A stretch of 64,000 bases of DNA from Plasmodiophora brassicae (lineage: Eukaryota): assembly GCA_036867785.1 (NCBI GenBank), contig CP145421.1, positions 1-64,000 of the forward strand. The letters run 5' to 3'. Each line of letters begins with the position of its first letter. The first letter of the stretch is position 1. The position numbers were made by a program. Positions 24,001-36,000 of the stretch are shown piece by piece.

Positions 24001-27000
24001 CTTGCGCTGCGACGACAGGTGTCCCACATCGTCCGGCGACGTTGCCGTGCTCATCCGCGCGCACCGCACCCGCCTCCCCTCAGCAGACGATCATCCGACG
24101 TTCCTGGGGGCGCGCGCTCCGCTGTTAGGTCACGCCCACGCTCCTAATGCGATCGGTCCACGATCACGGAGGTACGCCGACAGGACCCGCGTATCGCAGT
24201 TTGGGCTGGCTGCTGAGAATCACCCGCGCGCCTGCCCTCCCCGTGCGTACGACGACTGCCCAGGCGCGGGTGCCGTCGCCGCGTCACATTGCAGTTGTTC
24301 AGTCGACCGACCGTCCGCAGGTTGCAGCTCACGGGCGCTTGCCGTCGCGCACTGCTGCGTGCTCGTGACGCGCGTGTGTAGTTCGCACCAGTCGGGAGCA
24401 CTGCGCTCAGCCACTGGGCGCCGTCCCCGAAAACTCCGGGTCTGCAGCTCGCGCGTGACGGTCGCGCAGTGCGGGGGGCGGTGCGGACGCATTCTGCGCG
24501 CGCGCGTGCATGATTGGCGGGGCGGCGGGGCGCACCGGATGAACGTGGGACGGCGGGGCGACGCCGTCGGGTGCCGCCAGGTCGTCGTCGGCGTGCTCGT
24601 CGTCCTCGTCGTATTGCTGGTTGCGACGCGGCGCGCGCGTCCGCCGCCGCCCACAGCCGCCGACCTGCGCCCGCTGGCCGGGCGCCGCATCCTGATCGCG
24701 GCCAACTACTGGAACAACATGGCGATCCTGCCGGCGCACGCCGACGCCATGGTGGCGCTGATCGCCCTGCTCAGGGCGGCGTCCGCCAGCGTGTTCGTCT
24801 CGATCTACGAGAACGGGTCGACCGACGGCACCGACCGGTTCCTGCGGTCGTTCAAGGCGCGGCTGCGCGCGCTCGACGTCCTGCACCGAGTCGTCGTCGA
24901 CCGGCGCCCGCCCTGGGAGGCCCAGTTCCGCCAGCAGAACGCCACGACGGACATGATGGCGTTCCGGATCCAGTTCATGGCCGACGTGCGCAACCAGGCG
25001 CTGGAGCCGCTCGACCGGCACCGCTTCGACACCGTCCTCTTCTTCAACGACGTCCTGTTCGACCCGGTCGACGCCGTCCGCCTCCTGCTGACCGACGCCA
25101 TGCAGTACGACGTCGCCTGCGCCATGGACTTCAACCGCATCACCCTGTACGACACGTGGGTGGCCCGCGACGTCAACGGCGCGTCCATGTCGTCCTTCTT
25201 CCCGTACGTCGCCGACCGGGACAGCGCCGACCTGGTCCGACGCGGCCTGCCCTTCCCGGTCGCGTCCTGCTGGAACGGCGTCGCCGCCATCCGCGCGTCG
25301 GCGCTGGGCCGGACCCGGTTCCGGGCGTGGCGGCCCGGCGAGCGGCGTGGGCCGCCGACGGCGCTGCCGGACGGCGGGCCCGTCTACGACGAGGCGTGCC
25401 CGGTCAGCGAGTGCACGCTGCTGTTCATGGACCTGCAGGTCAAGGGCCACGACCGGTTCCTGATCAACCCGGGCGTCCACGTGACGTACAGCCGCCTGGA
25501 TCGCGCCCTGCACGGCGCGATCGGCGACGCGTTCGCCGCCGCCTGCGACCTGCTGCTCGCGGTCGACCGGCACGACCGGGTGCCGGCCGGCGCCCGCGTC
25601 ATGCAGTGCGGCCTGGCGCGGCCGGCACACCTGCGCTGGTGGGCGCACCTGCTCTGGCTGGCGCCGTGCGCCCTCGTCGTCGCCCGGCGCCTGCAACGCG
25701 ACCGACGGCGCCGCCGGCCCAAGGTCGACGTCAAGTCGCACGTCTGACGACGACTCCTCCTGGCCCTTGGCACTTGTTTAACGTATACACGTGCCTGCTG
25801 CTGGTGCTGGGCCGGCCCCCACCGCCGCCGACGTATATCTGTAGGCAGGCGTTCTATGAGGGGGGGCGCGTGCCACACGCCATTGACAACGCGCGATCGA
25901 TCGTCGTCGACCCCCGTGTGCACATTGGCTATCAGGGCCGCATGCCCGGGCGTCGTCTGTGAGGGCCGCCCGTCGGCGTATGACGCTGCCGCGAGGGGGA
26001 TCCATGTCGCCCGGCACCGTGACCCGCATGAACAGCGGCAAGGACATCGTCCCGCCGGTGGTGCAGACCGTGCACCACCGGCGCTCGTCCAGCACGCACG
26101 GCCGGGTCGACGGCAGCGGCGGCGAACAACACCTCCACGACATTCCCGTCCCGAACGCGGTCGTGCCCGCCGCCGACGCCGAGCGGCGCGTCGAGAGGCA
26201 CCCGCCGGTGAAGCTGAAGAAGAGCGCGTCGCAGGCGATCATCGAGAGCCAGCAGCAGCGCGACCGGTCGCGGCAGGTCATCGCGACGTATCGCAACGCG
26301 GGCAAGACCTCCAGCACGGTGGCGGCGGCGGCGCCCGGCGAGGCCGACGCCAAGTCGATCGCGATGACGTCGACGCGCATGTCGGTCGGCGCGGACGGCG
26401 ACGTCGGCGATCACCCGGCGGCGGCGGGTCGGGCGGCGACGGCGCGCCCCGTCCTGACCAAGAGCGTGTCGCTCGATCCCGAGCGCCGCTTCGAGCCGTC
26501 GCTGAAGCGCCAGTCGAGCAGGTCCATCCTGAAGCGCACCGACTCCAGCTTCCGCATCGACACGAGCGCCGGCAACGCCGCCGCCGCCGCGGCCGCCGCC
26601 GCCCCCGCACCCAGCCCGACGTCCGGCGACCACCGGCGGTCGCTGTCCCGGCAGCTGTCGTTCGCCGACGAGAAGGCGCAGCCGCTGGCCATCGTGCACA
26701 ACGTCGCCGACACGCACTACCCGAAACGCAAGGCCTACTGCGGCCTGCACGCCGCGTGCTGCGCAATACAGTAGCCGGGGGGCTGTGCGTGCCAGTGCGG
26801 GACTGCACGCGCGCAGTCGACACGAAGGCGCCCTCGCCGCTGCGGAACTGCACACGGGACTGCACGCGCGCAGCGGACACGAAGGCGCCCTCGCCGCTGC
26901 GGAACTGCACACGGCGCGACGCAGTCACCAATGGGGTATTGTACTGCACCCATCGTGGCCCGCCTGGAAGGCGGCAGCGTACGCCCTCGTGACCTGGAAA

Positions 27001-33000: not shown

Positions 33001-36000
33001 GCCACATCGCACGTGGACCTTGTGTTCACAGTCGAGCCACCGGAGCATGGCACCATCGTTCACACCGCATTTGTCACATGATGACCTGGAGATGTCTGAG
33101 ACGACGCGACGCAAGCAACAATATGAGCGGAGTCGTTACAGGTTGAGGTGGGGGAAGTAGGCGGGGTCCACCAGAAACCCAGTCCGATCCAGCGTCTTGG
33201 TCGGGGTTTCTCTCGCAGACCAGATGAATGCGGACGATAACGCGATATCCCACTCATTTTGCACCAACGCATGGACGGCCACTAGGAACGGTTCCATTTC
33301 TAGGACACAGGCAGTGGACAGAATCATTGCAAATTGGTCACGTGACCATTTTTGGCCATTGGTCCAAATCCATTCGAAGGCGTTTTCGACGACCTGTAAT
33401 GTGTGCGCACGACGTTAATCCGACGTCGGCATCGTCGAGGTGGCAAACGGGGGCGGAGACTTCAACGTACTTGATGGTTTGCATTCGCCATAAACTGCAT
33501 GAGCTGCCGCAATGTGCTGCGGAACTGCAGCACACGCGCACTGTCGCGCATTTCGACGAAGACGCGCACTCGGGCCACTGCCGATGCCTACACCAGCCGC
33601 GGTCCCGCAGCTGATCATGCATTGCGTTTTACGTTAACGGTTTCGAGCTGGGCGGGCGGGCGTCGTGTGTCAGCTGCGCGCGGCATGGTCGTACATGTTG
33701 CGCCGGGCGGGCGACCGCGCCGCCACCGCCGCCGCCGTCGACGTCGGTGCGGCGACGCGCTCCATGATGTAGGGCGTGCCGTCGTCGGTGAAGAAGACGT
33801 CGCCGATGCCGGGGACGGCCACGTCGTGCACGGCCCCGCCGGACGCGTCGTTGCGGTAGGCGGGCGACACTGTTCGTCGCGTGGGGCCGCCGTTCCGCAC
33901 GTCGGTCGTGGACGGCGCCGCCGCCGCCCGCGGTGGTGACGTCACATACCGGTACTCGGCGGCGTCATCGACGTTGTCGACGTCATCTTGGTCGATGGCG
34001 CTCGCCGACGTCGCGTTCGTCGCGTTGCTGGCGCCGCTGGTGCTGCTGCCAGCAGGCATCGGCGCCGGCAGTGTCTGGTTCGGCTGCAACGACGCCGGCG
34101 ACATGGCCAGGCGGCCAGGAACGATCTCGCCCAGCGGGCGCCGGTGCCGCCTCGGCTTCGACGACCGCTGCATGGTGGCCGCCGGCGTCGTCGTCGTCGT
34201 CGTGTTCGCCGCCGCCTGCTCGTCCTCGTTGCTGATGATGGGCGCCCTGACGACCGTGACGGCGTCGCCCGACGGCAAGACGACATCGTCAATGTCGCCC
34301 GGGGACGTCCCGTTCCTGGCGCCGCTGGACATGGCGTTTGACGCGTTCAGCACTGACGACGGCACCCGTCCGACGTCACTGCTGTTGCTGCTGCCGGTGG
34401 CGCTGTCGCTGCGCCCCGACACGTTCGTCGTCGCGTTCGTCGTCGCGTTCGTCGTCGCGTTCGCCGTCGCGTTCGACAACGCGAGCAGCCCTGGCGGCAC
34501 CGTCGTCGTGTCGTTGACGTGGTCGCCGCGCCGTGCCAACGCCGCCCCGTTGCCGAAGGCGACGTCCAGCAGGTCCGCCGCCGTCGGTGCCGACGACGAC
34601 GACAGCAGCGAAGACAGCAGGGACGACAGTGCGGACGCGGCGCCCTTCTTATGCACGTGCTTGCCGCTCTTGTGGTCGTTGCCTGGCGCGCCCGCCGTCG
34701 ACCGGGCGTTCGTCGTCGAGCCCGTCATCGCAGTCGTGTTGCTGCCGGACGCTGCCGGCGACAGCAACGACAGCAGCGCCGCTGGCGTGCCGCTCGTCGA
34801 CGCCCTGCCGGCCAGGCCCTGGTCCGTCTCTGGCGCGGCCGTCGTCGTCGCGTTGGCGTTGCTGACCGTTGCCATTTCGTCGTTGAACAGGTCGTGCAGG
34901 GTGGACAGCGGCCCAGGCGACGACGACGCCGCTGATGTCACCAGGTCGTCGCGCACGAGGTACATGGGCGTCTCGTTGCCCGCCAGCGTCCGGTTAACGA
35001 CGTCGGCGGCGCTCGGCCTGTGGTTGACGCCGTTGGCGACGTCGTCGCGCACGAGGTAGACCGGGGCGACGTCGGCCAGACGCGACGTCGCCGTCGCCGG
35101 TTGCTGCTGAGCGCCGCCCGGCGCCGGCGTCGTCGTCGTCGTCGTCGTCGGCTGGACATGGAATGCGAACGGCGCTTCGGTTGTTGCAGGCGGCGGCGCC
35201 GATGATGACGGCGTCACCGCGCCGCTCGTGTAGGCGGGTATGACAATGGATCCGGTGTAGGCCAGCGGGTTGCCGGTGACGGCCGCGATTAGGAGGGCGG
35301 CCGTGCCCATCAGGCGGACCGTGGCGACCATCGTGTGTGTGTGTGTGAACGAGCGCGCGTTGGTGTTCGTGGGGATGCCCGATAGATTGTAATTGTGGTG
35401 CGGGTATCGGGCGAGGAGCAGCACAGGTGAGGTCACCGCCCGCGTCAACACTGGGCGCCCGACCTGGACCCGCGTTGCGTCAACGCCCGATGACGCACAC
35501 TGGACCAGTGTGACTCCTCCTCGGGTCGCCCCAACTGTGGTGATACCCTGTCACCTGCATGCTCGCTCCCGCCAACAGGAGCGCCGCGCGTGTTTCACCA
35601 TCTGTCGTGAACGTCGAGCCGGTCGGTTGAGTTGGCGTTCGCCGCAGCACTGGTCCAGTGTGCAACGAGAGGTAGGGCCCAAGCGCCATTGTTGTTAGGG
35701 GAAGGGGCACTCGTCGTCGTACGCTGCCCCAGGCCGTCGGAACGTGGGCGCTACGAGGACGAACGGTCCAGTCGTCGCTGTGGGCCGCAGGACATGAGTC
35801 ACACTGGGGGGTCGGGTGGTGGTAGACTGACCACCAGTCCACCACCGACGACTGTTGCACTCGCCAGATTAATTATTCATCGGGGCACCTATATTTCCTC
35901 GTGTGTATAGAGCGGTCGGCACACACCGCGATGCCCTTGCGGCTAGGCATGGTCGCCGCGTTGCTGGCCGTTGCCCTGGCCAGCCGCCCAGCGGCGCCGG

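Follow-up and report, generated by a model that had tools for sequence, protein, structure and literature searches.

Subtelomeric regions of human, yeast, Plasmodium and fungal pathogen chromosomes contain patchworks of duplicated DNA, blocks common to different chromosome ends being their hallmark, while in plants Helitrons and Pack-MULEs produce multiple short, intron-containing gene fragments in mixed orientation. We have followed up an earlier note, made from sequence alone, which described a mosaic island of captured gene fragments around an intact Crinkler-like gene at positions 26798-33620 of a 64,000-nt stretch of DNA from Plasmodiophora brassicae (assembly GCA_036867785.1, contig CP145421.1, positions 1 to 64,000 of the forward strand; this whole stretch is termed the window). 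The evidence derives from the 64-kb window, protein databases and public sequencing runs. Nearly all the features named in that note are confirmed, with three corrections (to the orphan, the RING paralog and the Crinkler-like gene), and its interpretation is supported in part. With moderate confidence, the island is interpreted as debris of subtelomeric break repair and duplication together with a retroelement remnant; both the repair mechanism and the absence of function in the pieces are what we infer. Regions of this kind are already known and the island reveals no new mechanism.

The island resembles subtelomeric patchworks in lying tens of kb from a telomere, in containing blocks from other loci that meet at abrupt junctions in mixed orientation and in having pseudogene pieces and transposon remnants beside a fast-evolving, lineage-specific gene. 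It differs from them in that its locatable donors are on the same arm and its pieces are unusually short (0.2-1 kb). Short unrelated pieces joined without spacer, in either orientation and from nearby templates, are also characteristic of filler DNA and of fork stalling and template switching/microhomology-mediated break-induced replication (FoSTeS/MMBIR), but the pieces in the island differ in age, unlike those expected of one such event. Similarly, intron-containing fragments of several loci in mixed orientation recall capture by Pack-MULEs or Helitrons, whereas the island lacks terminal inverted repeats, neither of its hairpins is followed by a recognisable Helitron end and nothing points to extra copies. 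A further parallel is provided by teleost AACRNL, which the available text of PMC12957317 describes as a header-less Crinkler-type toxin module beside transposon remains and gene fragments. There, however, the toxin domain is an ADP-ribosyltransferase and flanking transposon ends were identified, while here the module is a nuclease-kinase with one known paralog (P0002) and no such ends were found. 'CR-REase' Crinkler families have been described by Zhang et al. 2016, as cited in the accessible portions of PMC5772912 and PMC6131194. The island protein has nuclease and kinase catalytic residues in common with oomycete Crinkler nuclease-kinase modules (CRN8-type kinase) but, unlike oomycete Crinklers, carries a coiled coil where they have the header and lacks an evident signal peptide.

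The components of the island, followed by their partners elsewhere in the window, are as follows (ORF, open reading frame).

26798-26914, no strand: tandem repeat, 57 nt x 2.1 copies, 96% matches (repeat search)
27199-27562, no strand: diverged inverted pair, 114-nt arms with a 136-nt spacer (BLAST, repeat search, folding)
27563-27758, no strand: three degenerate copies of a 38-nt motif, 76-79% (repeat search)
27762-27993, minus strand: internal fragment (~72 codons) of the 9.1-kb gene, inverted (BLAST)
27992-28279, plus strand: internal fragment of an RFC small-subunit gene, human RFC2/yeast Rfc4 type (homology search)
28749-30419, plus strand: intact, intron-less nuclease-kinase gene (ORF, homology, structure models)
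30567-30603, plus strand: hairpin with a perfect 17-bp stem and 3-nt loop, z -5.1 (folding)
31212-32162, minus strand: decayed copy of the 3' part and 3' flank of a Ser/Thr-rich mucin-like ORF (BLAST)
32156-32447, plus strand: Gag-like gene fragment, previously the 'orphan' (HMMER, tblastn)
32680-33512, minus strand: full-length RING-H2 paralog (BLAST against 51251-52059)
9102-10574, plus strand: 491-codon ORF, donor or paralog of the 27762-27993 fragment (BLAST)
33574-35550, minus strand: intact mucin-like ORF (33670-35550) with its 3' flank, partner of the 31212-32162 copy (ORF, BLAST)
51251-52059, plus strand: RING-H2 gene, partner of the island copy, adjoining the transposon-rich 46-51 kb block (BLAST, Pfam)

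The pieces are copies made at the DNA level, as the earlier note had proposed, because they still contain introns and flanks. An 81-nt GT-AG intron (28131-28211), across which the reading frame is restored, persists in the RFC fragment, the RING-H2 paralog keeps intron 1 and both flanks, and the mucin copy retains 90 nt of 3' flank. An origin as processed pseudogenes (retrocopies) is ruled out by the RFC intron and RING intron 1. The joins are abrupt and in mixed orientation, again as described, and two of them are direct abutments of unrelated internal gene pieces with no spacer. At the first, homology to the 9-kb gene stops at 27993 and RFC homology begins at 27992 on the opposite coding strand; at the second, mucin homology stops at 32150-32162 and gag homology begins at 32156. 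Whittled full-length duplicates rarely leave spacer-free junctions of internal parts, whereas the joining of copied stretches would. Divergence from the partners is unequal, being 8% for the 9-kb-gene piece (synonymous divergence, dS, 0.12), 3-7% for the mucin blocks and 30% for the RING copy, with the gag fragment diverging by 18-50% at the protein level. This range (~5-30%) therefore suggests several events, with the proviso that partners within the window may not be the true donors. Frameshifts and deletions are present in the mucin, RFC and gag pieces. Every dispersed gene-derived duplication (non-tandem, non-transposon) detected in the window has one of its copies inside the island, and homologs within the window were recovered for the three fragments for which they had been claimed.

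A subtelomeric patchwork with repair insertions is the most economical reading of these observations. Breaks or stalled replication 27-34 kb from the telomere would have been repaired repeatedly by copying stretches of 0.2-1 kb. Three pieces have donors or paralogs on the same arm, namely the 9-kb gene, the adjacent mucin-like gene and the 51-kb RING gene, and two would come from outside the window, from an RFC small-subunit gene and a retroelement gag; the pieces would have been inserted in either orientation as they came and would then have decayed. The mechanism may have been end joining with templated 'filler' insertions or template switching mediated by microhomology, and the two larger pieces may be plain segmental duplications. 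The reading fits a statement in the accessible part of a bioRxiv pangenome preprint that structural variants of P. brassicae cluster in transposon-rich spots of an otherwise closed, compact genome; the same source puts transposons at 11-14% of the genome and states that over half of the structural variants overlap them.

On the left side of the island, both repeats are present as the earlier note had them. The 57-nt tandem repeat begins 24 nt past the stop of a plus-strand ORF (26774), and the arms of the inverted pair (27199-27312 and 27449-27562) are 74% identical over 114 nt, or 80% over an 88-nt BLAST core, forming as single-stranded DNA one long hairpin with a stem of ~100 bp (z -8.9). 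The fragment at 27762-27993 corresponds to the reverse complement of 9537-9294 at 92% identity (219 columns, E 3e-86). Of the coding differences between them, 6 are synonymous and 12 non-synonymous, and the fragment has lost 12 nt close to its end. Copying of this piece thus stands, but the name given to its gene, 'STELLO-like', is weak. A Pfam search of ORF 9102-10574 gave no match, and 3 of its 30 nearest atlas clusters carry PF03385, on 49% of their members; the ORF possibly encodes a STELLO-like glycosyltransferase, which is to be taken as a lead only. The claim of a deleted RFC2 copy is borne out by ORF 27911-28327, which matches residues ~93-171 of yeast Rfc4/human RFC2 (E 6e-14) with ten residues deleted at the Walker-B box. 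Inside the RFC intron lies a perfect 46-nt palindrome (28137-28182; z -7.3), unique in the window, which could have arisen as a scar of fold-back repair or could act as a small-RNA hairpin. It was not among the features listed previously, in which the one hairpin is the 17-bp stem at 30567-30603, located 148 nt past the nuclease-kinase stop codon and recovered here. The centre of the palindrome is AT-rich.

On the right side, the mucin copy is broken, as had been reported. It matches 33574-34931 with 93-97% identity in blocks; relative to the intact gene it lacks 262 bp (33668-33929) and shows many repeat-associated indels, and its frame changes at least 4 times. The adjoining sequence had been regarded as an orphan coding-like fragment, and while its coding character is upheld, it is not an orphan. 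A full HMMER scan of 1.84 billion representatives detected a single relative, P0056, at 68% identity; P0056 in turn shares 72% identity with P0057, a P. brassicae protein annotated as 'CCHC-type domain-containing protein', which ends in a zinc knuckle (zf-CCHC at 288-303, 22.7 bits vs a Pfam cutoff of 20.8). The fragment covers residues ~37-139 of the 313-aa P0057, approximately one-third of the gene, with 67-82% identity to P0056 and 49-82% to P0057, and in tblastn the match resumes in a second frame after one frameshift near 32349. A Pfam search of P0056 at E <= 1 gave no match, Retrotrans_gag included, while 20 of its 30 nearest atlas clusters are Retrotrans_gag (score 0.92, on only 120 shared features and so a lead). 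The chain of matches from P0056 to P0057 with its CCHC knuckle identifies 32156-32447 as a putative retrotransposon gag remnant and a real coding remnant.

The last piece had been described as a truncated SKP1-RING paralog. It is a paralog, 32680-33512 matching 52059-51251 at 70% nucleotide identity, but it is not truncated: the match spans the whole gene, from ~20 nt before the ATG to 136 nt past the stop of the 51-kb gene, and the island copy is therefore full length. Nor is there support for SKP1, as the N-terminal exon of both copies gave no Pfam or PDB sequence match. Both copies have a short first exon followed by a GTAAGT/GTACGT intron, the RING-H2 part is matched by Pfam in both, and all 8 RING-H2 zinc ligands are present in both. 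At the position of the second intron of the 51-kb copy, the island copy shows an in-frame TAA and lacks the acceptor AG of that intron. Ratios of non-synonymous to synonymous substitution (Ka/Ks) of 0.48 in the N-terminal exon, 1.2 in the RING exon and 0.76 together allow no decision between gene and pseudogene, and no database protein of 64-207 aa, the size range searched, matched the family. Judged from these features, the island copy may be a whole, working gene. The inverted duplications 9322-9537/27762-27977 and 32824-33060/51675-51911 have arm spacings of 18,224 and 18,614 nt, a similarity that may be coincidence.

The chromosomal setting is defined by two further features.

23-330, no strand: telomere repeats (CCCTAAAA)n (repeat search; PMC6823432, available text)
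46204-48417, minus strand: Ty3/gypsy pol remnant with RNase H, integrase and chromodomain (Pfam; low-GC block)

The repeats found at the start of the window correspond to T4AG3, the P. brassicae telomere repeat according to the part of PMC6823432 available, which places the island at a distance of 27-34 kb from the chromosome end. It is bordered by two convergent ORFs, the plus-strand ORF ending at 26774 and the minus-strand mucin-like ORF at 33670-35550. Background GC content is 65-72%, with lower-GC blocks at 1-7 kb, 27-31 kb and 46-52 kb, and the Ty3/gypsy remnant, detected by Pfam on window ORFs, is inside the last of these, 13 kb from the island, which shows that retroelements have landed in this chromosome end. 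The telomere, the gag remnant, the Ty3/gypsy remnant and the possibly whole RING gene form the context by which the island is best explained and which the earlier note had missed. Four segments (26915-27198, 28280-28748, 30420-31211 and 32448-32679) gave no match in Rfam and tRNA scans, in Pfam and PDB sequence searches of their ORFs or in tblastx within the window; unfiltered tblastx was swamped by GC-rich noise and the filtered run was used. Direct and inverted repeats (48771-49103, 49303-49505 and 50271-50599; 84-96%) cluster beside the gypsy remnant, within 46204-50600, this repeat-rich block lying directly upstream of the RING-H2 gene.

The structure of the island appears to be real. Short-read contigs of DNA runs X5 (study P2) and X13 (study P3) bridge each inter-fragment junction. 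Contigs of both runs cover 26885-27829, 30347-31361 and 32093-34015, whereas cover to 28166 starts at 27784 (X13) or 27815 (X5) and cover from 28153 ends at 28730 (X13) or 29082 (X5). Contig breaks are confined to the tandem repeat, the interior of the piece shared with the 9-kb gene and the palindrome. Bridging in runs of both studies makes an assembly chimera unlikely. The pieces are present in a second isolate (X13), and 20 runs from 8 studies, one of which may be the source of the DNA, contain at least 69% of the island's sampled words; no RNA run is listed among the holders. Contig k-mer depth of the island is similar to that of the single-copy flanks, 224-288 vs 259-276 in X5 and 79-100 vs 81-82 in X13, giving no sign of extra near-identical copies of the island, an indirect indication as depth is not copy number. 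Contigs of runs X15 and X17, which are guessed to be RNA, map to the nuclease-kinase ORF (28728-29410 and 29301-30376) as well as to several fragments; uncovered stretches in these runs (30817-31217 and 32822-33623) are not readable as silence. No splice joint was seen over the island in contigs of the runs examined. Candidate contig 'joints' with sides of 20-24 nt in (GAC)n-type low complexity were discarded.

Several observations weigh against the interpretation of the island as repair and duplication debris. The single deletion for which both sides are known, the 262-bp deletion in the mucin copy, has 1 nt of microhomology. With 9,231 genes in 25 Mb, or 1 gene per ~2.7 kb (PMC6823432, in its accessible portion), 6.9 kb would be expected to contain ~2.5 genes, and the island, with 1-2 intact genes, is not strikingly gene-poor. 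The RING copy keeps 8 of 8 zinc ligands at 30% divergence and is maybe a working gene rather than debris. Finally, variation between run X13 and the window amounts to 46 differences in 3,992 nt of flanks (within 24000-36000), or ~1%, compared with 3 in 5,384 nt of the island outside 29331-30346 (Fisher p 3e-14). The island is thus less variable than the neighbouring genes, which simple neutral decay does not predict; a recently shared haplotype, resulting from recombination or a sweep, or constraint on the block are possible causes. The kinase-coding part has 9 single-nucleotide polymorphisms (SNPs) in ~800 nt, and a 7-nt deletion at 28012 in the RFC fragment is polymorphic, being detected in X13. 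Diversity along 24000-36000 falls into blocks.

Transposon transduplication, by a Helitron, a Pack-type element or long terminal repeat (LTR) read-through, might alternatively have dropped the fragments, and the nuclease-kinase gene may have travelled along with them, an explanation that we consider unlikely. Short internal fragments with introns in mixed orientation do fit Helitron and Pack-MULE products, a gag fragment lies within the island, and the GC content of the gene and its flanks (54-57%) is closer to that of the 46-52 kb transposon block than to the 65-72% background. Both Helitrons and LTR elements have been reported in P. brassicae, according to the available text of the pangenome preprint, and in fish header-less Crinkler-like genes duplicate with neighbouring gene pieces via flanking transposons, as described in the accessible part of PMC12957317. 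However, no inverted repeats enclose 27762-28279 or the gene, the sole long pair (27199-27562) lying beside them. Helitrons have a 5' TC end and a 3' hairpin ~10-12 nt before CTRR; here, the nearest CTAG is 43 nt past the 30567-30603 hairpin and none follows the 28137-28182 palindrome. In addition, Pfam detected no transposase or Rep-helicase among window ORFs of at least 110 aa, the island has the contig depth of single-copy flanks in X5 and X13 (again, depth rather than copy number), and the unequal divergence of the pieces speaks against one cargo. The Pack/Helitron-like vehicle suggested in the earlier note is accordingly not supported. A 16-nt inverted match between the outer edges of the island (26865-26880 and 33667-33682) was set aside as within chance by a rough estimate.

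Repeated repair, as favoured here, also has to be weighed against a single complex replication-based rearrangement, a serial template switching resembling chromoanasynthesis, in which gene conversion or selection would later have made the apparent ages unequal. All locatable donors within 25 kb, the two direct-abutment junctions and the inversion of two copies relative to their partners at near-equal arm distances (18.2 and 18.6 kb) are consistent with such an event. It is nonetheless improbable, given that divergence spans ~5% to 30% and that two donors lie outside the window; moreover, the RING partner in the window is maybe not the true donor.

A functional alternative is that the block is kept as a source of small RNAs, the hairpins and antisense pieces feeding a 21-nt pathway that silences or tunes the parent genes or the retroelement. 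The available text of PMC13547706 reports an active small-RNA pathway in P. brassicae, with small-RNA loci that are mainly intergenic, then transposon-derived, and a palindromic region that yields microRNAs. The island contains three strong hairpins and gene pieces inverted relative to their partners, it is near-invariant between isolates that differ by ~1% in the flanks, and contigs of X15 and X17, two possible RNA runs, map to several fragments. Conversely, the RNA status of X15 and X17 is a guess, and the polymorphic 7-nt deletion in the RFC piece is what would be expected of junk. This explanation is very doubtful; if true, a small-RNA trap locus could explain the near-invariance of the block between isolates.

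The gene at the centre of the island is intact. ORF 28749-30419 encodes 556 aa and is 98.7% identical to P. brassicae PBRA_009220, 7 of 556 residues differing between the window protein and that of e3 (P0001). Four of the 7 differences cluster at residues 326-338, in the linker between nuclease and kinase. The protein comprises a coiled coil (1-118), the coding part of which holds a 21-nt x 3.5 repeat at 28986-29058, a PD-(D/E)xK nuclease-fold domain (~154-335) and a protein kinase (~340-556). An AlphaFold model from a 29-sequence alignment (predicted local distance difference test score, pLDDT, 86) has two long helices (1-118), an alpha/beta domain and a kinase, and in Foldseek searches with the whole model kinases dominate (E 2e-8). 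Modelled alone, the middle domain has a pLDDT of 86 and aligns by VIA-align with the DrdV nuclease domain (Z 10.9, root-mean-square deviation 2.5 A over 126 residues), BpuSI (Z 10.2) and TT1808 (Z 9.8), and gives a weak Foldseek match (E 2e-3). These models predict a restriction-endonuclease (PD-(D/E)xK) fold for the middle domain. In the aligned homologs the residues E193 (29/29), D213 (25/29), E266 (26/29) and K268 (28/29) are conserved, all four being present in the window protein, as are the kinase glycine loop, Lys, Glu, HxD, Asn and metal-binding Asp, each conserved in 28-29 of 29 sequences. The intact nuclease-kinase of the earlier note is therefore upheld in its nuclease fold and kinase, but it has no Crinkler header: no N-terminal header (PF20147, LFLAK/HVLVxxP type) was detected, Pfam at E <= 0.01 giving a weak kinase match alone, and the N-terminus is hydrophilic by eye.

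A protein database search returned 52 non-Plasmodiophora hits, including oomycete proteins, among them PF20147 carriers (e.g. P0005, P0012, P0013 and P0021; E 1e-37 to 1e-44, 57-86% query cover), and the C-terminal module is homologous to Crinkler C-termini. Crinkler-related proteins are already on record for P. brassicae, according to the accessible text of PMC5772912, while PBRA_009220 is not named in the main texts of the literature searched. There is one true paralog, P0002, which is 80% identical and located on another contig; a metagenome scan for the P0002 locus gave no match. P0003 was rejected as a third paralog, as it matches the 28749-30419 locus in three pieces and represents an alternative gene model. 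Between run X13 and the window the gene has 7 synonymous and 2 non-synonymous SNPs, and this bias, together with the open frame, indicates that the gene is under constraint. The shuffling of effector parts proposed earlier is not observed, the ORF being intact with no fragment fused to it. We interpret it as an ordinary, constrained, lineage-specific gene in an unstable neighbourhood, and it is shown neither to cause the patchwork nor to profit from it. That its nuclease-fold domain cuts nearby DNA, with repair capturing fragments in a selfish, homing-like manner, is highly improbable despite the intact predicted fold and catalytic residues and the fragments on both sides of the gene, as there is no link between the protein and this DNA, the junctions show no target repeat, the gene is without transposon ends and fusion of oomycete homologs to secretion/translocation headers suggests targets in other cells.

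For clubroot genomics, the island is an example of a compact, mostly stable genome with small unstable pockets near chromosome ends, in which genes are copied, broken and possibly renewed, and one of the few Crinkler-related genes of the pathogen sits in such a pocket. Annotation is corrected as follows: the orphan becomes a probable gag remnant, the RING copy a full-length one and the header-less nuclease-kinase an intact gene under constraint. A block of unusually low diversity is also flagged; the practical value is limited.

Elsewhere in the window, a 1,438-codon open frame at 35826-40142, which matched no Pfam family, contains PEANAN-type repeats, encoded by an 18-nt unit that is present at least 41 times (38662-39480 and beyond). 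An ORF on the minus strand at 60599-61456 strongly matches the KGG stress-induced repeat five times (Pfam PF10685, E 9e-54); this family has been described from bacteria. At 3-4 kb from the telomere, a plus-strand ORF (3052-4248) carries a 5'-nucleotidase C-terminal domain together with the beginning of a class-3 seven-transmembrane receptor domain.

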